DNA from: Scenedesmus sp. PABB004
Lineage: Eukaryota
Direction: 5' to 3'
DNA: 64,000 bases
Assembly: GCA_014905635.1 (NCBI GenBank)
Contig: JABVCE010000010.1
Location: forward strand, 1,116,001 to 1,180,000
A model generated the notes under the pieces. That model saw nothing but the letters and a program-made list of their open reading frames with translations. It was not told the DNA's origin and made no database searches. The number at the start of each line of letters is the position of its first letter. The first letter of the stretch is position 1. Positions 1-64,000 of this stretch are shown here, piece after piece. The position numbers and the translations under genes were made by a program.

Positions 1-577
1 AGCCCCGCCTGCAGGTCGGCGCCGCCGGGGATCTGGTCGAGCTCGATGACCACCGCCGGCACCGCCAGCTTCGCGAAGAGGCCCTTGGCCTGCAGGGCGG
101 CCGCGGGCAGCGGCTGGGCGGGCGGCGCAGCGCGCGGCCGCACGCCGCGGGTGCCAGCTCAGCTCGTGGGGCTGGGAGCTGCAGGGCGCCGCACCTCGGT
201 GCAGTAGGGGCAGTAGGTTTTGCTGTACACGACCACCTTGTTGTCCGCGACGGTCGACTTGACACTGTCGACCTGCGGCGGCGGCAGCGGCGGGCAGCAG
301 CGGCGGGCGTCGCGTCGCGCGCCGCGGCGGCGCCCCGCCGGCTGCAATTGCGTGCAGGCCGCGCCGGTGCGCACCATGGACGCCCTGGTCGCCAGCCGCA
401 TGCGCTGCGCCCCGCGATGGCCTGCGTGGGTGGGCGGAGGCTGTGTGGGTGGTGGCGTCGCGGCGCCGCTGCTGTGTGGCTGCCGTTGGCCCCCGCGCGC
501 TCGCCGCCCGCCCACGCACCGCCCGTGGGCACGCCGAACGCGCGCTGCGCCCAGCCGCGGATGCCGGTGGCCTGCAT
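1..577 (-). CDS. Class I (CPYC) glutaredoxin with probable organellar transit peptide; 3' end runs off the window
   Basis: Spliced exons (ATG 577; 272-195; 89-9) give MQATGIRGWAQRAFGVPTGGHRGAQRMRLATRASM|VDSVKSTVADNKVVVYSKTYCPYCTE|AKGLFAKLAVPAVVIELDQIPGGADLQ, with the canonical VVVYSKTYCPYC motif. Confidence 0.9.
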   Translation of the reverse strand, partial: MQATGIRGWAQRAFGVPTGGAWAGGERAGANGSHTAAAPRRHHPHSLRPPTQAIAGRSACGWRPGRPWCAPARPARNCSRRGAAAARDATPAAAARRCRRRRSTVSSRPSRTTRWSCTAKPTAPTAPRCGALQLPAPRAELAPAACGRALRRPPSRCPRPPCRPRASSRSWRCRRWSSSSTRSPAAPTCRRG

Positions 578-975: not shown

Positions 976-8870
<7,895 letters not shown>

Positions 8871-18706: not shown

Positions 18707-21087
18707 TCACAGCGTGCCGGCAAAGGTGCAGTCGGGGAACTGGCCGCGCGCCTCCTCGATCGTGCGCGGGACGGCGGGCGTGCCGTCGGCCTGGGCCTCG
18801 GCGGAGCCCATCCAGTAGTTGATGACCTGGGTCAGGCGGTTCAGCAGGCGCACCTTGTCCATGTCGCTGATCCAGGGCCGCGCCTCGAGCGCGAGCTTCA
18901 GCTCCTCCCACGCGTCCTTGCGCGGCCACACGAAATACTCGGTCAGAGGGCTGCTGTTGCCGCGCGCGTAGACCTGCGCCCGCCGCGCCGCCGCCGCGGC
19001 CCGGGGCGTGTGAGCGGGCCGCGGCGCCGGCGCGGCCGGCGGCGCGCTGCCACGTCCTGCGCGCCCCGCGCCCTGCGCGCCCCGCGCGCCCCGCGCCCCC
19101 CGCGCCCTGCGCGCCCCCGCGCCCCCCCCCCCCCCCCCCCCGCGCCCCCGCGCCCCCCGCGCGCCGCGCCGCGCCGCGCCGCGCCTGGTCGACCGCGACC
19201 GCGATGTTCTTGTCCATCCACATGAAGACCAGCTTGTACTCCGGCAGCGCGAGGCCCTCCGCCTCCTTGTCGGTGAACCAGTCGACCGTGGTGTCGTCCC
19301 AGTCCTGCGCGCAGCGCCGCCGGCGGCGGCGGCGGCGGCGGGCGGCGGCGGGGCGTGCGGCGTTGACGCGCCGCGCGCGGGCGGGCGCGCGGGCGCGGTG
19401 TGGGGGAGGGCGGGTGTGGAGGGCGGCGGCGCCCCGCGGCCGCCGCGGCGGCGACGCGCGCACACCTCGGCGAGCAGGTGCTCCGCGAGCTCCTGCTTGC
19501 TGAGCTTGAGCGCGCCGACCACCTGCCGCGCCTGCAGCGCCTCGTCGTTGCTCAGGCCCTCCAGCACGTCCCTCTGCGGCGCGGCGCGGCGCGGCGCGGC
19601 GGCGGGCTCGGCGGCCGCCCGAGCGGGCAGCGGCCGCGGCGCAGGCGCAAGGGCGGGGCAAGGGCGGGGCAAGGGCGGGCGCAGCGCACCTGGTGGCTGC
19701 CAAGGGGCGCGGCGCCGAGCTCCTCGGTGACGACGGCCTCCGGCACGTCGCCTGCGGCCGGCGACGGCAGCAGCGGCGGCGGAGCGGTGAGCGCGCTGCG
19801 CCGTGCAGACCGGGCGCCGGCGCAGCCCGGCCGCCGCCCGCGGCCCGCCGCCCAAGCGCGCGCGCCGGCGCCCACCGGCCTCCAGCAGCTCCGCCGCGGC
19901 CGCTGCCAGCGGCGCCGACGCGGCGGCGGCCGCCACGCCCGAGCCCTCCATCTGCAGCTGCGCCGCCTCGGCCTGCAGCTGCGCGAGGTAGCCAGCGGTC
20001 TCGTCATCGCCGGTGCCTGCGCGCGCGGGCGCGGCGCGGCGTCGGCAGAGAAGTGAGCGCGCCATGCGCACGCGCGGACACCGCGCCGCTGCGCGCGCGC
20101 GCAGCCACCTGCGCGCGCAAGGGCGCGCGGCGCGCCGCACCCTCAAGGAAGGCCGCCTCGATGTCGGCGACGGCGAGCGAGTTGAAGTGCGTGGCCTCGG
20201 CCGCCGCGACGAGCTCCTCCACGCTCAGGTCAACCTCCTCCGCGGGCGTGTTGACCGCGCTGGAGGGGCCCGTCAGCGTCATGCTCGCGAGGTCGATCAC
20301 ATCGCCCTGCGCGCGCGGCGGCGGCGGCGCAAGGCGGCGAGCGGTGCGGTGAGCGGGTCCAGCGCGGCGCGCGCACGGCTCGTGCGCGGCCAGCCCCCGC
20401 GGCGGGGGAGCCGCCGCCCGTCCCCGTCCGTCCGTCTGCTGCCCCGCGCGAGGGTCGCCTGGGACCGCTGGCCCAGCTGCCGGCGCGCCGGAGCGCGGCC
20501 GTGGGCGGCGGCAGCAGCGGCCCGAGCGCCGGCCGCCGCCGCCCGCCGCCGCCCCCGGAGCCGCTGCCGCTCGCCCGATTGCGCTGCCCGATCCCTCGCC
20601 CCGCCCGGGCGGCCCGCGCGGGGGCAATCAAGCCCGCCGGCGCCAATGAGGCCCCGCCGGCGTGGCTCGAGGCGGCCTCCCCGCGCGCGGGCCCCCCCGA
20701 TGGCGGCGCGGCAGCACGCGGGGGCTGCATCGCGGTCTCCCCGCTTCGCATGGCACCGCCTCCCGCCGCGAGGGGCGCTCTCGCGGCCGGCCGCCGACCG
20801 CCCGCAATGCCCAGCCACAGAACGCCCGCCCCGCCCCGCCCGCCCCGCGCGCGGTGAGGCTCCGGCTCTCTCTCACCTCGGCGGTGGCGGCGCACGCCCG
20901 CCCGCGACGCCGCTGCTGCTGCGCCGCTGGCCGGGGCAGGCCGCCCGCGCCTGCTGCTGTGCGGCGCAGCGCGGCCTGCGGGGCGCGTGCGGGTCGCGTG
21001 AGCGGCGGACGCGACCGAACCGCCGCGCGCCGCCATCCAACGCACCGCGCGGGCCGCGCTGCTGCTGCCGGCGGCCAGGAGCACCAT
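18707..21087 (-). CDS. PSRP3: Plastid-specific ribosomal protein 3 (PSRP-3/Ycf65, cS23) with acidic N-terminal extension and transit peptide
   Basis: C-terminal domain [72 protein letters not shown]...[12 protein letters not shown]. The ATG at 21087 with an Ala/Arg-rich transit peptide is less certain. Confidence 0.92.
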
Positions 21088-45835: not shown

Positions 45836-48947
<3,112 letters not shown>

Positions 48948-50082: not shown

Positions 50083-53000
50083 ATGACCGGCGGGGAGGAG
50101 CACGGAGCCGCGGCGCCCAAGAAGCGCTACACCGGCGTCTGGCCATTCCGCAAGGAGCTGGTCGAGGCGCCGCTGTACGACGACGTCAACTGCCCCTATG
50201 GCGTCAAGCCGTCGGAGCTGTTCAAGCTCAATGAGGTGCAGCCGGCGCCCCGCAGCAGGCCGGCGCCGCGCCGGCGAGCAGCAGCGGCGAGCAGCAGCGC
50301 TGACCGCCGCCGCCGCGCGCCCGCCGCGCCGCCGCAGGACAAGGACATGGGCAAGCTGCGGGAGCTGGGCGGCGTCGAGGGCCTGGCGGCCGCGCTGCGC
50401 GCCGACACGCGGCGCGGGCTCGACCCTGCCGCGGAGGGCGACGCGTCGCTGGCCGAGCACGAGCGCGTGTTTGGCTCCAACACGCTGCCCACCGTGCCCC
50501 AGAAAAACTTCTTCGCGCTGTGCTTCGAGAACCTGAAGGACCCCATCATCCTGCTGCTCATCGCCGCCGCGCTGGTGCGCGGCCGGCGCCGCCGGCGGCG
50601 GCTGTCGCGGCAGCACGCGGCGCTGCTGCGCCGCAGACGCGCGCGCGGCCGCCGACGCGCGCCGCCGGCCTGCCGCCCGCGGCGCAGGTGTCCACGGTGC
50701 TGGGCGTCGCGCTGGAGGAGCAGCGCAAGGAGGGGGAGTGGATCGAAGGCATTGCCATCTGGGTCGCGGTCGCGATCGTCATCATGGTCGGTGCGTGGCG
50801 CCCCCCGCGGCGGCGGCGGCGCTCGGGCCTGTGTCCGTGGCGGGGGCCGCGCGGCCACAATGCTGGCGGGGCAGCGGCCGGCGGCGGCGCCGGTGCCGCG
50901 GTCCGGCGGCGCCCGACGCGCGGGCGGCACGCACCGGGGCGCGCATCGGTGCGACCCGGTCCCCCGTCCTCTCTCTCTCTCTCTCTAACTCTCCCTCGCC
51001 CTCGCCCCGGTCATCAGGCGCGGGCAACGACTACCAGAAGGACCTGCAGTTCCGGAAGCTCAACGCGCAAAAGGACATCATTGAGGTCACCGTCACGCGC
51101 GGCGGCGAGACCAAGGCGCGCGCCGCGCCGCGCCGCGCGGCGCCGGCGGCCTCTGCGCGACCCGCGCCCAGCGCCCACGCCACCGCGCGCCGCCCGCCGC
51201 CCACCGCCACCGCGCGCCGCCCGCCGCCCACCGCGTCCGCGCGCCCACGCCCCCGCAGCTGGTGAAGAACACGGAGCTGGTCGTGGGCGACGTGTACCTG
51301 GTCAACATGGGCGACAAGGTCGTCGCCGACGGCGTGCTCATCGACGGCTTCCACCTCATCATAGATGAGGCCTCCCTCACCGGTGCGCCGCGGCGCGGCG
51401 CGGCGCGGCGCGCCGGTTTGCTGGCGGTCGGTCTGGCAGATGATTGTTGGCGGCGCGGCGGCACGCGCACCGCGTTTGACCGCGCCGCGCGCGCCGCGCG
51501 TGCCGTGCCGCGCCGGCCCCGCGCCGCACCACAGGCGAGAGCGACCCGATCAAGAAAAACCCCGAGGAGGACCCCTGGGTCCGCAGCGGCACGCAGGTGA
51601 GGGACGGGCCGCGGCGCGGCGCGGCGCGGCGCGTGGGCAGCAGATCGCGCCGCAACCCGCCCGCGCCACGCCGTGCCAACCGCGCCCGCGCCGGGGTTCC
51701 GCCGCCGCGCAGGTCAGCGAGGGCAGCGGCCGCCTGCTCATCGTGGCGACGGGGTCGCAGAGCGAGTGGGGCAAGACGATGGCGCTCGTCGGCGGCGCGG
51801 GCAGCGAGGACACGCCGCTGCAGGAGAAGCTCGCCGACCTCGCGGCCGCGATCGGCAAGATCGGCTTTGGCGTCGCGGTGGCCTGCTTCATCGCGCTGCT
51901 CATCAAGTGGTGCGCCGCGCGGCGCCGCGCGCAGCGCCAGGGGCTCGCGCGCCGGCCGCCGCGGCACGCCGTGCAGCCGCGGCGGCCGCCGCGGCCGGGG
52001 GGTGCGAGTGCGGCGCCGCCGCGCCGCCCGCGCGCGCGCTCGAGTCCTCTTCCTTCTCACCTCGCCGCGCCGCGCCGCGCGCCGCCGCGCGGCCAGGTGC
52101 GTGGTGAACCGCGGCTTCCCTCTGAGCAAAATCAACCAGAATGGCCCCGTGCAGTTCTTCCTCTACGCCGTGGTGCGTGTGTGTCTGTGTGTGTCTCTGT
52201 GTGAATTAGTGGGGAGGGGGCGCTGCGGCTCACTCGCTGGCAAACTCGCCGGGGGCGGGCTCGGGGCAGCGCCGGGCCGGGGCGACGCGCGGCGGCCGCC
52301 GCCGGCGCTGACACGCTGCCGCCGGCGGCGGCGCCGCCGCGCGCAGACGATCGTGGTCGTGGCGGTGCCGGAGGGCCTGCCGCTCGCGGTGACGATCGCG
52401 CTGGCCTACAGCATGAAGAAGATGATGCGGGTGCGCTCGACTGCCGACTGTTTGAATTCAATTCAAACTACTAAAAACAGGTTTTTTACCAGCGCGCGCG
52501 GGCCCGCGCCCACGCGCTGCCGCCGCCGCCGCCGCCGCCGCGGCAGGACAACAACTTTGTGCGCGTGCTCGCGGCGTGCGAGACGATGGGCGGCGCGACC
52601 GCGATCTGCAGCGACAAGACCGGCACGCTCACCGAGAACCGCATGACAGTGCGCGGCGCCGGGGCTTAGGGCCAGGGCGCAGGGCCCAGCGCCTGTGCCC
52701 GCTGTCGCCTCCCCGCGCGCCGCCTGCGCCCGCGCGCGCGCTCCGCGCTCGGCCACGGCCCACCCGCCGTGCGCGCCGCGCGCGCCGCAGGTCGTGGAGG
52801 GCTGGTTCGCGGGCGTCCAGTTTGACCACGCGCCCAAGCCCGAGGTGCGGCCTCCCTCCCCTCCTCCCACCGCCGCCGCGCCACCGGCCCGCCGCGCCGG
52901 CGCGCTCACGCGCCAGCGCGCGCGCGCGCCCCGCGCCCGGCCGCGCCCGCGCCGGCCAGGAGCTGCGCCCCGAGCTGCTGGCCGAGCTGTCCAACAACGC

Positions 53001-56000
53001 CTGCCTCAACAGCAAGGCCTTCCTCATCGACCACGGCGGCGACCTGCCGCTCGAGTTTGTCGGCAACCGCACCGAGTGCGCGCTGCTGGTGCTCGCGAGA
53101 AAGTGGGGCGTCGACTACAAGCAGGCGCGCTGCAGCGCCGGCGCCCGCGCACCCCCCGCGCACGCGCGCACCCGCGCCGCGCCCTCCCGCCCTCCCTCGC
53201 GCACGCGCTCCGCGCCGCGCGCTGCAGCCTCACGGCCGCCGCCGCCGTCGGCGCCGGCGCCGCTGCCCCCGCCGCAGGTGCGCGAGGAGGCCGCACCGCG
53301 CATGGCCGAGGTCTACGCCTTCACGTCGGCCAAGAAGATGGCCAGCGTGCTCGTGCGCCGCGGCGACGACTCGCTGCGCCTCTACAACAAGGTGCGCGCG
53401 GCGTGCGCGGCGGCGGCGCCGCGCGTGCGCGGCGGCTCAGCAGCACCGCGGCGCAGCACCGCGGCGCAGCACTGCGGCGCGGCCGATCGGCGCGCGCCGC
53501 GCGCGCCCGGTCCCTGCCGCGCCGCCGGGTCTCACGCGCCGCGCGCCGCCGCCGCCGCCGCCGCCGTGCCGTCAGGGCGCGGCGGAGTGGGTGCTCAAGC
53601 GCTGCGTGAGCCTGGTCAACGAGCGCGGCGAGGTCGTGCCCATGACCGACGCGGCGCGCGACGCCCTCATGCAGGCGCGCCGCCGCCGACGACCGCCGCC
53701 GCTCGCGCGCCGCCGCGCGCCGCTCAGCCCCGCCGCCGCGCCGCGCCTCCCTGCCCCACACGCCAACCGCCGCCCGCGCGCGCAGACGGTCGTCGGCATG
53801 GCCTCGCGCGGCCTGCGCTGCATCTGCCTGTCCTACACAGACTATCCCGCCACCGACGCGGCGCGGCCGTCCGACTTTTTCGAGGACGCGGACCGCGTGG
53901 ACGTCAACCTCGTCGCGATGGCGGTCGTGGGCATCAAGGACCCCGTGCGGTGAGGCGCAGCGGCGCGGCGCGCACAGCGCGGCGGGCGACTCGGCCCGGG
54001 AGCCCCGGGCGCCGCCGCGCGGCGTGGCGCGCCCACGCCCACGCCCCGCCGCCGCCGCCGCGGCCGCGGCCATGCGCAGCGCCGAGGTCCCGCACGCGGT
54101 CAAGGTGTGCCAGAACGCGGGCATCACGGTGCGCATGGTCACGGGCGACAACATCCACACCGCGCGCCACATCGCGCGCGAGTGCGGCATCCTCACCGAC
54201 GGCGGCGCCGCGCTCGAGGGACCCAACTTCCGGGCGATGCCCGCGGGCGAGCTCGTCCCGCTGCTGCCCAAGCTCCAGGCGCGCCGCGATGCCAGCGCCG
54301 CGGGCGGCCGCCGCTGGCGCTGGCGCCGCCGCGCCGCGCACGCCCCGCGCGCCGTCTCTCGCGCCCTCCGGCCGACCTCGCGCGCGTCGTCCGTCACACG
54401 CGCGCGCAGGTGCTGGCGCGGTCGAGCCCCGAGGACAAGCTCACGCTGGTGAGCCTGCTCAAGAAGGAGGGCGAGGTCGTCGCGGTCACCGGCGACGGCA
54501 CCAACGACGCGCCCGCGCTCAAGGAGAGCGACGTCGGCCTCGCCATGGGCATCGCCGGCACCGAGGTGCGCGGCATCCTGGGCCCCGCCGCCGCCGCCGC
54601 CGCCGCCGCCGCGCGCCCCTCTCTCTCCCACCACGCCGCACCGTCACGCGCGCCGTCCCTCTCACACACCGCCGTCACACCATCATGCCGCCGCCTCGCG
54701 CCCGCCAGGTCGCCAAGGAGGCGGCTGACATTGTGATCATGGATGACAACTTCAGGTGCGCCGCCGCGCCGCACTGCGCTGCGCTCGCTGCGCCGCCGCG
54801 CCGCTCAGCCGCCGCCGCGCCGGCGCCGCCGCTGCCGCCGCGCCCGCAGCTCCATCGTCAAGTGAGGCACATCGCTGGGGTTAAGGGGCTGGTTTAGGGC
54901 CGCGCCCCCACCCCCACCGCCCGCACCTGCCCAGCCCCGCCGCTCGGGCGCCGCGCGCGCCCGAGCGCGCGCGCCGCGCCCTTTTCTGCCCTCGCCGCGC
55001 GCACGCGCGCGCGCGCTCGATCAGCTCGCGCGCCGCCGCCGCGCGCGCAGGGCGGTGCTGTGGGGCGCAGCGTGTTCAACAGCATCCGCAAGTTCCTGCA
55101 GTTCCAGCTGACCGTCAACTTTGTCGCGCTCGTCGTCGCGTTTGTGCGCGCGCGCGCCGGGGGGGGGGGGGAACTCGGGGGCAGAAGCGGGCGCGGGGCG
55201 CGCGCGCGCTCAGCTCTCGCGCGCCCCCGCCGCCGCGGCGCGCAGGTCGGCGCGATCATCGGCGGCCGCATCCCGCTCAACGTGCTGCAGCTGCTCTGGG
55301 TCAACCTCATCATGGACACCATGGGCGCGCTCGCGCTCGCGACGGAGGACCCAAACCCCTCGCTCCTCGACGACAAGGCGCGCACCGCGCCGCACCGCGC
55401 CGTGCCGCGCCGCGCCGCGCCGCGCCGCTCGCCGCCGCGCGCACCGCGTCGCACCGCGCCGCTCCGCCTCGCTCGCCGCGCGCCTCCCCCGCCGCCTGCC
55501 TCGCGCGCCGCTCCGCCGCCTGCCTCGTGCGCCTCCCCTGCCGCCCGCCTCTCCCGCCCACGCGCGCACGCGCCCGGCACGCACACACGCCCCGCATGCA
55601 CCCCCCCCCCCCCCCACACACACACACACACCCGCGCGCGCAGCCGCACGGGCGCGACGAGAGCCTGATCACGGCCAAGATGTGGAAGCACATCCTGGTG
55701 CAGGGCCTGTACCAGATGTTCTGGCTCTTCTTCTTCATGTACGCCGCGCCCGTGCTGTTTGAGCGCTACCGCATCACCACGGCCTGCGCGTTTGCGACAA
55801 ACGGGCCCTACGAGGCGCGCGCAGCGCGCGCGCGCGCGGCCGCCGCGCCGGCGCGGGTGTCGTGACTGAATGACCGACCGGCGCCCCGCGCGGCCCCGGC
55901 GCCCCGCAGGCCGCGCCCGACCCCGGGTTCTGCGCGGGGCACCTCGTGTCGGCGGCCGGGCTGTCCCCCGCCAACGCGACCTTTTACTGCGGCGCGATGA

Positions 56001-57232
56001 GTGCGTGCGGCTTCGCGAGCGGCTGCGGCGACGCGCGGCGGCAGACGCCGGAGTGCCCCTTCTTCGCGCGCATGCCGCCCGGCACGCAGGCGCGTGGCAA
56101 ACGTGTCAGCGGGGAGGGTGTCAAGCTGGCAGAGCGGGAGGCGGCGCGCGCGCGCCAGGCGCCGCGCCGCTGAGGCGCCGCGCGCGCCGCGCAGGTCCCG
56201 GCAGCGCGGGCGCCGCGTTCGCTGCGGCCTTCCCCGCCGGCGCGCCGCCGGGCGGGCCGACGCTGGACGGCTTCAACGCCGCCGTCACGTCCATGGACAA
56301 GGCCTACCTGCACGAGGGCGAGAAGGACTGGGAGAAGGCCGACTCGGTGCTCTTCAACGCCTTCATCTTCCTGCAGGCACGGCGCCGCGCTGTGTGCGCT
56401 GTGTGCGTGCTGTGCGTGCGCCGTGTGCGCTGTGCTGTGCGTGCTGTGTGCGCTGTGAGCGCTGTGAGCGCTGCCGAGGCGCCGCGCGCGCCCGAGGCCC
56501 GAGCCTCGCCGCCGCCGCCGCGCCGCCGCCGCAGCTGCTGAACGAGGTCAACGCGCGGCGCATCAAGGACGAGCTCAACGTGTTTGAGGGCATCCACCGC
56601 AGCCCCATCTTCCTCGCCGTCATCGCCATCACCGCCGGCCTGCAGGCGCGCCGCCCGCCCGCGCGCCCGCGCGCCGCCGCCGCGCGCACGCACGCCACAT
56701 GCACGCACGCCCCCGCGCGCACGCCCGCCCCACGCCCACCGCCGCTGCCGCGTCGCCGTGGCCGCGTGACCGTCAACCCGTCCCTGTCCCCGCAGGTGAT
56801 CATCATGCAGACGCCGGTGGGGCGCTTTTTCAAGGTCATACCCATCAACGGCGTGGAGTGGGCGGTCAGCGTCGCGATCGGGCTCTCCGCCGTCCCCGTC
56901 TCCATACTCACGCGCATCATCTCGCGGTGCGAGGGCGGGCGGCGGCGCGGGGGCGGGGCGGGGCCCGCGGCGCGCTCGCCGCCGCCGCCCGGCCCGCGCG
57001 GTTGCTGACGCGCCGCCGCCGCCCCGCCCGCCGCAGGTGCCTGCCGCCGATCCACTTCCGGCGCCCTCGCCGCCGGGGGCGGCGCTCCGCGTCGCTGCGC
57101 GTGCACGATGAGGCGGTCGCGCTCGCGCGGCGCAGCGCCGACGGCGCGCACGGCGGCGCCAAGGCGTCCAACGGCGCCGGCGCGAGCGACGCGCCCAAGG
57201 CGGCGGCCGTGGCGCCCGTGGCGCCGGCCTGA
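50083..57232 (+). CDS. ACA: P2B-type Ca2+-ATPase (ACA/PMCA), 27 exons
   Basis: [33 protein letters not shown] (phosphorylated Asp), [82 protein letters not shown]. Confidence 0.97.
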
Positions 57233-60227: not shown

Positions 60228-62448
60228 TCAGATGAGGGACAGCTCCTCGCTGTTGGCGCGCTTGCCGCTCTTGAGCTTGTTGTAGAACGTGTGCGTCTCC
60301 TCGATGACCTGCGGCCGCCGCGCGGCGTCGGCCCGCCGCCGCCGCCGGCCCGCCGCCGCACTCTCCCCCGCGCAGGCCCCGCGCGCCGCCCGCGGCCGCC
60401 CCGCCGCGCCGCGCCTTGAGCGTGAAGGCCTTGTCCATGCACTTGTTGTCGTAGCCGAACGCGTTGGCGGGCTTGCCGTCGGGGATCTTGTAGTCCCGGA
60501 ACCACTCGAGGATCTTGGTCAGCTCGCCCGGGAACTCGCTGCGAGGGCGCGCGGGCGCGCGGGCACGCGGGCGCGCGGGCGGGGGGGGGGGGGGGGGGCG
60601 GGCGGGCGGGCGGGTCGTGAGGTTGGGAGCAGCGGCGGTTTGGCGCTTTGGTGGCCGCGTTGCGAGGCGCGGCGCGGCGGCGGCGGGGGAGGGAGGGAGG
60701 GGAGGGGCGGCGGGGGCGCAGCGGCCGCGCCCGCGCGGGCGCACCGCTCGACGTCCTCGAGCGTGTTGACGGCGGCGGCCTTGGGGTCGGCGGTGTTGAT
60801 CGCGATCACCTGCGCGCGCGGGCGAGGCCCCGCGGCGGCGCGCAACCGCCGTCGGCCCGCGCCCCACACGCGCCGGCGCGCCGGCCGGCCCGCGCTGCAG
60901 GTTTGGAAACCAACACCAAAGCCCCAGGCCCCCGCGCGCCGCGCGCCTTCCAGTCGAGCTCGCCGTCGTCGATCATCGCGTACACGCCCAGCGGCTTGAC
61001 GCGGTACACGCCGCCCATCTTGAGCTGGCTCGAGCCAATCTCCACGACGTCGACCGGGTCGTTGTCGCCCTGCGGGGGCAAGGCAGCACGGCGGCGGCGA
61101 CCGGCGGCGGCGGCGGCGCGGCGCGGCGCGGGCAGGCGTGGGCGTGGGCAGGCGGCGCGCGAGGCGAATTGAGGCAACAACAACAACAGCAGCACGTCGG
61201 CGCGGCCCCTCAAACTTGCAGAACTCCGGATGGAGCCATCAGCGGGTGATCAGCGGTTTGTGTGTGTGATTGTGTTTCTTTCATCGGGGGCGCGCGCACG
61301 CACGCGCGCGCACGCACACGTACACGCGCGCACTCGCACGCAGCGCCGCGCCCGCGCCCGCGCCGCGCCGCGCACCGCGACGCCGCCGAGGTCGGCGTTC
61401 TTGTGGTCCGGGTCCTCCCACGTCTGCGGGAGGAGGCCGTAGTTCCAGTTGATGTTGTAGGGATAGAACCGGAGCTTGCCCTTCTTGGTGTCCTGCTTGA
61501 TGGGCGTGCTCGGCTCGTCCTGCGCGACGCGGCGGCGCGCGCGGGGTCGCGTGGGGCCGCGCGGGGCCGCGCGGGCACGCGGGCGCGCGCCCACGGACCT
61601 GCACCGCGCTGCCCGCCGCGGGGCGCTGCGCAGGTGCGCGCGGCGCCGCGCCGCCGCCGCCACCGCAGCGCCGCCGCCCCTGCGTCGCACCGTGGCGACC
61701 TCCATCTTGGCGCTGGTCTCCTTGGGGATCTCGCAGATGAAGTGCAGCTCGTCCTCGCCCGCCCAGAGCGGGATCTCGTGCCAGCAGGAGATGACCTTGT
61801 CTGCGGCGGCGGCGGCGGCGAAACAGCGCCGCGCGCGTGGGCGCGCCGCCGCCGGCGGCGGCGGCGGCAGTGGCCGCGGCCGCCGGCGCACCGTTCTGCT
61901 TGAACGCAATGCGGTACTCCAGCGACTCCTTGGGGCCCTGCGGGCGCGCGGCGCGGCGCGAGCGCCGCCGCCGTCAGCGGCCGCTGCGGTTGGCCGCGCG
62001 GCGCCGCCGCGCGGCGCCGCGGCCGCGGCCCGCCGGCAGCCGCTCCAGCCCCCGCCCCGCTCCGTGGGCGGCGCGCCGGGTCGAATGCGGGGCGGCGGCG
62101 CCGGCGGCGGCGCGGCGCGGCGCAGCAGCGGGCCGCTCACCCGCTCCTCCACGCCGTAGCTGGACACCTCGGGCGCCTTGGTGGCGACCGAGCGCACCGC
62201 CACGGCGGGGCGCAGGTTCCGGGTCACCGGCGCGGCGAACCGGCGCATCTGCGGGGCGCGGGAGGCGGGCCATCAGCGCCGATTGATGCGAGCCCCGCCC
62301 GGGCGCGCCGGCGGGGCATGCATGCCCCGCCGCCCGGCTGCGAGCTGGACGCAGTCGTGGAGGTCCTTCGCGCCGAGTGGCGCGCGCGCGCGAGGCGCAC
62401 CTGCATCGGGGCCGCGCGCGCCACCGCGCCGCGCAGGGCAGCGGCCAT
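60228..62448 (-). CDS. Plastid soluble inorganic pyrophosphatase (family I, eukaryote-type)
   Basis: Transit peptide; [102 protein letters not shown]. Confidence 0.96.
61206..61290 (-). ncRNA. Intronic box C/D snoRNA predicted to guide 2'-O-methylation of 5.8S rRNA G in AAUUGCAG (Gm75 human / Gm79 plant; SNORD96/snoR39BY-like)
   Basis: Minus strand reads CCCC-CGATGA (C)...CTGA (D')-tcacccgc-TGATGG (C')...CGGAGTTCTGCAA-gt-TTGA (D)-GGGG. It has a terminal C/G stem and a 13-nt guide complementary to 5.8S UUGCAGAAUUCCG (one G-U pair); the D+5 base pairs with the G. It is an AT-richer island on the host gene's strand. Confidence 0.75.
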
Positions 62449-62781: not shown

Positions 62782-64000
62782 ATGACGAGCTCGCAGCCAC
62801 AGGCGGGCGCGCCGCCCGTGCGCATAGGTGCGCGGCCGCAGGGCGCGACGGGCGCCCCGGGACGAGCGCGGGCGCACGCGACCGGCGCCGGCGGCGCCGG
62901 CGCCGCGGGCGCAGCCGCGCGGCCGCCGCCGCTGCTCCGCCGCTGCTGCCCCGGCGCGCCGCATTCGTCGCTGGCGCCCCCGCTGCTGGCTGCGAGGGCA
63001 TGGCGAGCTGGCGCCGCCGGCGCGTCCCCGCTGACGCTGCGGCCGCGACACCCGCGCCGCCCGCCGCGCCGTGCGCCGCCAGGCGTGCTCGCGCTGCAGG
63101 GCTCCTTCCGCGAGCACATGGCGCTCCTGGGGCAGCTGCCCGGCGTCGCGGTCACCGAGGTGCGCACGCGGGAGGAGCTGTCGGGCGTGGCGGGGCTCAT
63201 CATCCCGGGCGGCGAGTCGACGACGATGGCGCACATCGCCGAGAGCTGGGGCCTCATCCCGGAGCTGCAGGCGTGCCGCGCTGCTGCGCGGCGCCGGCGG
63301 GCGTCTGCGCCGCGCGCGCGCGCTGCGAGCAGCGCGGCTGCGGCTCACGCCGTGCGCCGCGCGCCACCCCTGTTCTGGCAGGCGTTTGCCAGGGCGGGCA
63401 AGCCGGTGTGGGGCACGTGCGCAGGCATGATCTTCCTGGCTGAGCGCGCCGAGGGTGAGCGGCGCGGCGGCGGCGGCGGCCTCTCCCTGCGCGCCCGCGG
63501 GCAGCCGGCGCGCGGCCGCCCCGCCGCCGCGCGGCGCGGCGCGGGGCGAGCCGGCGCGAGCGGGCGCCGCCGCCGCGTCGTCGCCGCAGGCCAGAAGAAG
63601 GGCGGGCAGGCGCTGCTGGGCGGGCTGGACATCTGCGTGTCGCGCAACTTCTTCGGCGCGCAGGCGCGGCGCCCGCGCCCGCGCCCGCGCCCGCGCGGCG
63701 GCGCCCGCTCCCTGCGCCCCTGCGGGCGGCGGGCGCGACCGCCGCGCCTCGCCGCGCCTCGCCCGCAGGTGAACAGCTTTGAGACGCAGCTGCCGGCGCA
63801 CGCCGAGCTCACGCGCTTTGGCGGCGAGCCGACCTTCCGCGCCGTCTTCATCCGCGCGCCTGCGGTGATGGAGGCGGGGCCGCAGGTGCGGCGGCGGGGG
63901 CGCGGCCGCGCGCCGCGCCAGGCGCGCCGGCTGGTAGTGAGCCGGCGAGCGGGGCGCGCCGCGCGCGCCGCCCGCGGGTCTGACGGTCGCCGGCGCGCGC
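62782..64000 (+). CDS. PDX2: Pyridoxal 5'-phosphate synthase glutaminase subunit (SNO/PdxT); 3' end runs off the window
   Basis: VRI|GVLALQGSFREH, GLIIPGGESTTM, PVWGTCAGMIFLA, LDICVSRNFFGAQ|VNSFE, AVFIRAPAV. Confidence 0.95.
   Translation, partial: MTSSQPQAGAPPVRIGARPQGATGAPGRARAHATGAGGAGAAGAAARPPPLLRRCCPGAPHSSLAPPLLAARAWRAGAAGASPLTLRPRHPRRPPRRAPPGVLALQGSFREHMALLGQLPGVAVTEVRTREELSGVAGLIIPGGESTTMAHIAESWGLIPELQACRAAARRRRASAPRARAASSAAAAHAVRRAPPLFWQAFARAGKPVWGTCAGMIFLAERAEGERRGGGGGLSLRARGQPARGRPAAARRGAGRAGASGRRRRVVAAGQKKGGQALLGGLDICVSRNFFGAQARRPRPRPRPRGGARSLRPCGRRARPPRLAAPRPQVNSFETQLPAHAELTRFGGEPTFRAVFIRAPAVMEAGPQVRRRGRGRAPRQARRLVVSRRAGRAARAARGSDGRRRA

Follow-up and report, generated by a model that had tools for sequence, protein, structure and literature searches.

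Frequent GC-AG introns after exons ending in AG in a GC-rich green-algal nuclear sequence

Are GC-AG introns truly common in the nuclear DNA of a GC-rich green alga and, if so, does their frequency call for a changed splicing machinery? GC-AG introns account for 0.37-0.87% of the U2-type introns in five model species according to the figures given by Sheth et al. (2006, PMC1557818), and for about 1.2% in plants according to those of Pucker and Brockington (2018, PMC6310983). The question is raised by a stretch of 64,000 nucleotides from Scenedesmus sp. PABB004 (GenBank assembly GCA_014905635.1, contig JABVCE010000010.1, positions 1,116,001 to 1,180,000; hereafter the window, from whose first letter all positions below are counted). 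A preliminary description of this stretch had proposed that GC is the donor of roughly one intron in five, that such introns follow only exons ending in AG, and that nine of the 26 introns of a Ca-ATPase gene need a GC donor. Indeed, all 29 coordinates that it listed read [A/C/G]AG/GC on one strand. The window is nuclear DNA of a chlorophycean green alga with a G+C content of 76-85% in every 2-kb stretch. As set out below, we regard its GC introns as probably ordinary U2-type GC-AG introns, which are unusually common (~20%) in this green alga, whose nuclear genome has a G+C content of about 79%.

GC introns of the Ca-ATPase gene

All gene models were built solely from spliced alignment to homologous proteins, for which we used a custom protein-to-genome aligner with affine gaps, split codons and selectable sets of donors and acceptors. 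Aligned in this way to the homologs P0059, P0033 and P0084, the PMCA-type Ca-ATPase gene (50083-57232, plus strand) comprises 27 exons, 26 introns and 1158 codons. The model is open, without an internal stop, and its introns begin with GT in 18 cases and with GC in eight. When both GT and GC donors were permitted, the alignment with P0059 recovered eight of the nine GC donors that had been proposed, each with a flush junction. All eight are in phase 0 and follow AAG, CAG or GAG.

The positions of these junctions could be compared with four homologous loci that are nearly free of introns. The alignment was gap-free in all four loci across the introns at 51116-51258 (donor aag/GCGCGCG), 53125-53277 (cag/GCGCGCT), 54279-54409 (cag/GCGCGCC, after PKLQ), 55378-55643 (aag/GCGCGCA), 56377-56534 (cag/GCACGGC) and 56646-56795 (cag/GCGCGCC), and in three of the four across the intron at 53675-53785 (cag/GCGCGCC). 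The intron at 55815-55909 (gag/GCGCGCG) is the least well pinned of the eight. Intron 54279-54409 was picked by 19 of 24 homologs even without any splice-site constraint. As a census, the unconstrained alignment of these 24 homologs was too noisy and was set aside.

Conceivably, the true donors could be nearby GT dinucleotides and the junctions misplaced, or the C at the second intron position (+2) could be an assembly error. GC dinucleotides are so frequent in this DNA that in-frame GC alternatives almost always exist, and the gene shows at least one apparent frame problem, near 55063-55069, besides a candidate GC donor at 56090 that is out of frame. These observations would favor an artefact. 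Against it, seven of the eight junctions are gap-free relative to the near-intronless homologs, and the GC donors proved costly to remove. When GT was allowed anywhere and GC only at the eight sites, knock-out of the GC donors cost the alignment 41, 20, 35, 35, 18, 22, 14 and 42 units, and knock-out of the GT donors in the same alignment cost 4-95 units each. Reliance on GT alone thus costs 14-42 units per site and, in addition, introduces insertions or deletions of residues within conserved motifs. By homology, the GC donors of the ATPase appear to be needed as much as its GT donors.

The candidate at 56090 is the ninth of the proposed GC introns (56090-56194, plus strand, donor cag/GCGCGTG) and lies outside the set of eight. 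Its signals are typical, with scores of 8.7 for the donor and 11.4 for the acceptor, while the best in-frame pair totals 13.6. The in-frame alternatives all have weak donors, among them a GT at 56094 that scores -5.4. Combined with three nearby AG acceptors, the donor at 56090 gives exon lengths that leave remainders of 2, 1 and 2 on division by three, so that it is out of frame in the assembled sequence, and the sequence around it encodes a lineage-specific loop without homology. The proposal that nine ATPase introns need GC therefore holds for eight, by alignment and knock-out, and is doubtful for 56090. The other frame problem concerns the conserved ATPase motif SIVKAVLWGRSVF, which needs a donor aa/GTGAGG at 54862 together with a frame shift of one base in the G run near 55063-55069. 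As assembled, the SIVKAVLWGRSVF region reads in frame and two residues shorter via a donor atc/GTCAAG at 54857. Behind the problem at 54857-55070 there may be either a wrong length in the assembly or a true variant; taken with the one at 56090, it is a hint that the assembly contains small indel errors. Such errors are errors of length, not T-to-C substitutions, which argues against the idea that the C at +2 is itself a product of the assembly.

In many of the ATPase introns, short tandem or low-complexity repeats make up most of the sequence, including the unit CCACCGCGCGCCGCCCGCCGCC, GTGTGCG-type units and CA runs (for instance at 51140-51250, 56385-56470 and 55590-55640).

Rate, exon context and donor consensus

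To the Ca-ATPase we added two further genes, which together form a rigorous set of 55 introns. The first is a GSK3/shaggy kinase gene (45836-48947, plus strand), in which the closest homolog delineates nine introns, eight with GT and one with GC. The GC intron (47831-48005, plus strand) follows the residues CDFGSAK with a flush junction in the spliced alignment, and the string across this junction is unbroken in all eight aligned homologs, some of which are transcript-derived. The second is an ABCC-type ABC transporter gene (about 1000-8500, minus strand), where junctions were kept if found with at least three of five homologs. This left 20 introns, 18 with GT and two with GC. Both GC introns, at 7506-7637 (cag/GCGCGGC, phase 0) and at 1777-1922 (joining AIIPQ to DPVLFSG), lie on the minus strand and were placed at the identical junction with all five homologs. 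An in-house ab initio gene finder was rejected as a census because it merges genes, predicts antisense genes and overcalls GC donors; it was used only for proposing exon coordinates.

Separately, the GSK3 gene contains a possible cassette exon at 46811-46872, which aligns to a segment present in the homolog isoforms P0286, P0287, P0289 and P0291 and absent from P0282 and P0292. The donor following this exon would be gag/GCCGGT.

Pooled over the three genes, 11 of the 55 homology-supported introns (20%) are GC-AG introns (8/26 in the ATPase, 1/9 in GSK3 and 2/20 in ABCC) and the other 44 are GT-AG introns, in agreement with the earlier manual estimate of one in five. The proposed restriction to exons ending in AG was also found: AG precedes all 11 GC donors and 16 of the 44 GT donors (Fisher p = 1.1e-4). 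Viewed from the side of the exons, 11 of the 27 that end in AG (41%) are followed by GC, as opposed to none of the 28 with other ends. The remaining donor positions are likewise tighter in the GC class. A at -2, G at -1 and G at +5 are each found in all 11 GC donors, compared with 17, 36 and 40, respectively, of the 44 GT donors; G at +3 occurs in 10 and C at +4 in all of the 11. Positions +3 to +6 read GCGC in eight GC donors, GCGG in two and ACGG in one. None reads ATCC, and the introns are thus not of the U12 type. GA donors are absent from all 55 introns. The acceptor is CAG in all 55, and the next base is G in 44. Errors of alignment or assembly would not be expected to fall exclusively after AG in a GCGCG context, as all 11 GC donors do.

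Beyond the rigorous set, several more of the proposed sites gained support of a different kind, as the two ABCC sites and the GSK3 site had from their homologs. In the gene for the plastid ribosomal protein PSRP-3, the GC-AG intron at 18974-19184 (minus strand) falls between residues 220 and 221 of a solved chloroplast ribosomal protein (chain 28jw_v): residues 181-220 are matched by the exon that precedes 19184, and the next exon begins at residue 221. In the PDX2/SNO gene, the positions of the Pfam SNO profile continue across the GC-AG intron at 63271-63381 (plus strand), the junction falling at profile positions 61/62 by extrapolation. The GC-AG intron at 60810-60946 (minus strand) in a soluble inorganic pyrophosphatase gene follows GELDWK, and its upstream exon stops at residue 154 of yeast pyrophosphatase chains. 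A later exon corresponds to yeast residues 178-216, and the exon of 21 residues between the two fits the gap within one residue (exons compared with residues 155-217). Searches of solved structures with the exons of 21-22 residues, including the one downstream of 60946, gave no match. For 60946, 60414 and 63664, just the upstream side of the junction is pinned; in the case of 63664, the flanking PDX2 exons match different chains in the solved-structure search, and the junction is consequently not pinned. The support for eleven further sites of the preliminary description is limited to a codon-position GC pattern that is of the coding type on both sides and of the intron type in between, and to the fact that any in-frame GT alternative scores no better than the 10th percentile of genuine GT donors. 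The site at 8 lies at the very edge of the window.

Compositional bias, U1 pairing and relatives

Intron interiors in the three genes consist of 6% A, 49% C, 37% G and 7% T. Their C:T ratio is 6.6, whereas at +2 the ratio is 11:16 after exons ending in AG and 0:28 after other exons. The preference for T at +2 would accordingly be roughly ten-fold after AG and far stronger after exons with other ends. In published work, splice-site GC has been found to correlate with genome GC. We propose that a strong T-to-C bias, arising from mutation or biased gene conversion, drives the second intron base to C, and that this C would be tolerated solely after an exonic AG and in an intron with G at +3 and +5. 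Such sites would offer the 5′ end of the U1 small nuclear RNA (snRNA) about as many pairs as a typical GT donor does here, given that the change from T to C at +2 would lose one pair while the exonic AG would supply two. In an exon without a terminal AG, loss of the pair at +2 would put the site below that level, and T would be retained.

Pair counts over positions -3 to +6 were consistent with this proposal. Measured against the textbook 5′ end of U1, which may not be that of this alga, the GC donors can form 5-6 pairs with a mean of 5.64, compared with 5.86 for GT donors after exons not ending in AG (p = 0.37 against GC) and 6.88 for GT donors after AG. Since the GC donors equal the GT donors of non-AG exons in this count, no variant spliceosome is required. 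None of the observations calls for a change in U1, U6 or a protein factor.

An altered splicing machinery could nevertheless be envisaged, in which a variant 5′ end of U1 (or a variant U6, U5, U1C, Luc7 or Prp8) accepts C at +2 and makes GC and GT equivalent. After AG exons, GC is indeed nearly as frequent as GT (11 vs 16), the general donor consensus GTGCGC matches textbook U1 poorly at +4 and +6, and for the GA donors of two animals, published work has put forward a variant isoform of U1. Were C at +2 fully accepted, however, the absence of GC after all 28 non-AG exons would be unexpected, as would a consensus that is tighter in GC donors than in GT donors. In addition, T at +2 is kept in 80% of the introns despite the 7% T of intron interiors, and the pair counts agree with an unmodified U1. 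We therefore consider an altered machinery unlikely. An Rfam search gave no match in the window and none in 10 related loci, and thus detected no snRNA in them. Equally improbable, in our view, is a variant of this idea in which +2 has become nearly neutral after AG exons, judging by their 41% GC, through recognition machinery (the U1 5′ end, U1C/Luc7 or U6) that co-evolves with the extreme GC pressure. If true, the alga would offer a natural example of a splicing system that is moving from GT towards GC as a standard donor. The preliminary description had combined erosion of the U at +2 by GC pressure with the view that 5′ splice sites are recognized in a relaxed or adapted way. Erosion by GC pressure is supported by the 7% T of introns, by the GT donors of relatives described below and by the pelagophyte literature, whereas an adapted machinery was neither demonstrated nor needed.

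If compositional bias has converted GT donors to GC, relatives with lower GC should carry GT at the orthologous introns, as the preliminary description had pointed out. One scan provided 80 loci on metagenome contigs that encode relatives of the ATPase, 23 of which were aligned to the ATPase of the window. For one locus, L016, the longest open reading frame proved to be in the wrong frame and was not used. For three of the eight ATPase GC introns (54279, 56377 and 56646), positional orthologues at the same codon and in the same phase were present in relatives with 49-69% GC. Their donors were GT in 13 and GC in one of 14 loci at amino acid position 677 (intron 54279), GT in 6/6 at position 1013 (intron 56377) and GT in 2/2 at position 1050 (intron 56646). 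GT was therefore found in 21 of the 22 orthologous donors. Within the 23 loci, the other five GC introns had no positional orthologue, and neither did eight of the GT introns of the ATPase.

Relatives with 49-69% GC have at most an occasional AG/GC donor in the conserved core, while a fragment with 73% GC has gag/GCGCGC in one of its two introns. Single AG/GC donors were detected in three related contigs of 51-73% GC: cag/GCACGC at position 677 of L003, gag/GCACGA at position 51 of L006 and gag/GCGCGC at position 613 of L001. These indicate that GC-AG introns are present across the group at low frequency. As these contigs come from other sources, their AG/GC donors also speak against misplaced junctions or assembly errors in the window and, in view of the alignment costs and the invariant AG context, we regard an artefact as extremely improbable.

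A further possibility is that the GC donors are deliberately weak sites that serve regulation through intron retention or alternative splicing, and are not neutral products of GC pressure. GC-AG introns have been tied to the regulation of expression in human (PMC7242645), and the possible GSK3 cassette exon, with its GC donor, is found in some homolog isoforms only. The GC introns described here, on the other hand, interrupt conserved catalytic cores in genes of the housekeeping type, in which a retained intron would ruin the protein, and their number tracks genome GC across the relatives. A regulatory role is for these reasons very unlikely.

Several points weigh against ordinary GC-AG introns shaped by composition, or at least against the firmness of that reading, the use of a textbook U1 sequence among them. 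Every junction was inferred from protein homology, and the rigorous models cover three genes with 55 introns. GC makes up 20% of all dinucleotides in the ATPase region, so that alignment permissive for GC is risky. When single dinucleotides were admitted as an extra donor type beside GT, GC gave the largest gain in ATPase score of the 15 (231), but its lead over the controls (CG 167, CA 135, CC 102, GG 100 and GA 90) was not overwhelming. In ABCC, 32 junctions, each supported by one or two homologs and located in poorly conserved stretches, were dropped; 28 of them were GC and four GT, which shows how easily spurious GC donors arise. The 55815 junction of the ATPase was gapped in all four near-intronless loci, because it borders a lineage-specific insert, and 56090 is in frame with none of its three nearby acceptors. 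Finally, the sequence AGGCGCG points both ways. Across the three genes it is found 16 times in sense orientation (10 times exactly at homology-defined donors, five times in exons and once in an intron) and six times in antisense orientation, a distribution that favors the GC donors. The five exonic copies are apparently unused, however, and the motif alone thus defines no donor. Exons do not avoid it, with 4 copies observed against 3.2 expected from synonymous shuffles, and a branch-point box is not conserved, CT[GC]A[CGT] being found in the last 60 bases of only 16 of the 55 introns. The lack of exonic depletion and of a branch box counts against a simple motif-driven picture.

The window in context and comparison with known systems

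Besides the Ca-ATPase, GSK3 and ABCC genes, the window carries a glutaredoxin-like open reading frame (159-272, minus strand), a phytochelatin synthase gene (about 9.7-10.7 kb, plus), a metacaspase gene (about 12-14 kb, plus), the PSRP-3 gene (18.7-19.6 kb, minus), a group-1 glycosyltransferase gene (about 33 kb, minus), a gene for a TPR protein (57.6-59.8 kb, minus), the soluble inorganic pyrophosphatase gene (60.2-61.1 kb, minus) and the PDX2/SNO glutamine amidotransferase gene (63-64 kb, plus). A comparison of six-frame open reading frames with Pfam, which covered 280 of 550, had a low yield. The nearest full-length relatives of the ATPase carry the names of the chlorophycean green algae Tetrabaena, Pleodorina, Chromochloris and Polytomella, and the closest proteins to those of the window are from Monoraphidium and Raphidocelis, with which a GSK3 exon of 75 residues shares 96% and 93% identity, respectively. 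Judged by homology, the DNA most likely belongs to a green alga in or near the family Selenastraceae.

The main value of these findings is practical and concerns gene annotation. In genomes of this kind, many genes would be broken, in fact a large share, by gene finders that accept GT donors alone, and a model of the ATPase by itself would suffer eight errors. A case in point may be the annotation of Monoraphidium neglectum (64.7% GC), for which the supplement of PMC6310983 gives 19 major non-canonical splice-site pairs, a class that includes GC-AG, out of 67,746. This count seems too low if relatives behave as the window does, and it suggests that gene prediction there was limited to GT, with GC donors left unmodelled. 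The use of GC after 11 of 27 AG exons and none of 28 others can also be read as a natural titration of the need for U1 pairing at the 5′ splice site, and this split could calibrate models of splice-site strength for GC-rich algae of biotechnology. No long-standing question is opened, because the same trend has already been reported in pelagophytes. For green algae, high GC-AG rates were not described anywhere in the literature searched, which excluded most subscription journals.

The introns described here resemble the U2-type GC-AG introns of animals and plants in their GC...AG termini, in a tighter 5′ splice site (exonic AG and G at +5) and in the switches between GT and GC at orthologous positions. 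Compensation at the remaining positions of the 5′ splice site is known for GC-AG introns of both groups from the account of Sheth et al. (2006, PMC1557818). They differ in frequency and consensus, with 20% and GCGCG(C/G) in the alga as opposed to ~1% and GCAAGT in animals and plants.

Dinoflagellates, as portrayed in PMC12584245, are similar in that non-GT donors are common while acceptors are almost always AG. They belong to a different lineage, however, and also use GA donors, of which the 55 introns examined here have none.

The closest parallel in rate is provided by the pelagophytes Aureococcus anophagefferens and Pelagomonas calceolata, for which 14-17% GC-AG among predicted introns is given for genomes of 63-70% GC (bioRxiv 10.1101/2024.10.30.620910). 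The same source attributes this enrichment to GC content and gives 0.32% for a relative with low GC. Pelagophytes are stramenopiles and intron-poor (0.1-0.9 introns per gene), whereas the alga studied here is a green alga with dense introns (26 in the 7 kb of the ATPase gene). The restriction of GC donors to exons ending in AG was seen here and is not stated in the available passages of the pelagophyte study. Together, these comparisons place the GC-AG introns of the window as an extreme form, genuine though explicable, of a splicing variant that is already known, in line with the trend reported in pelagophytes.

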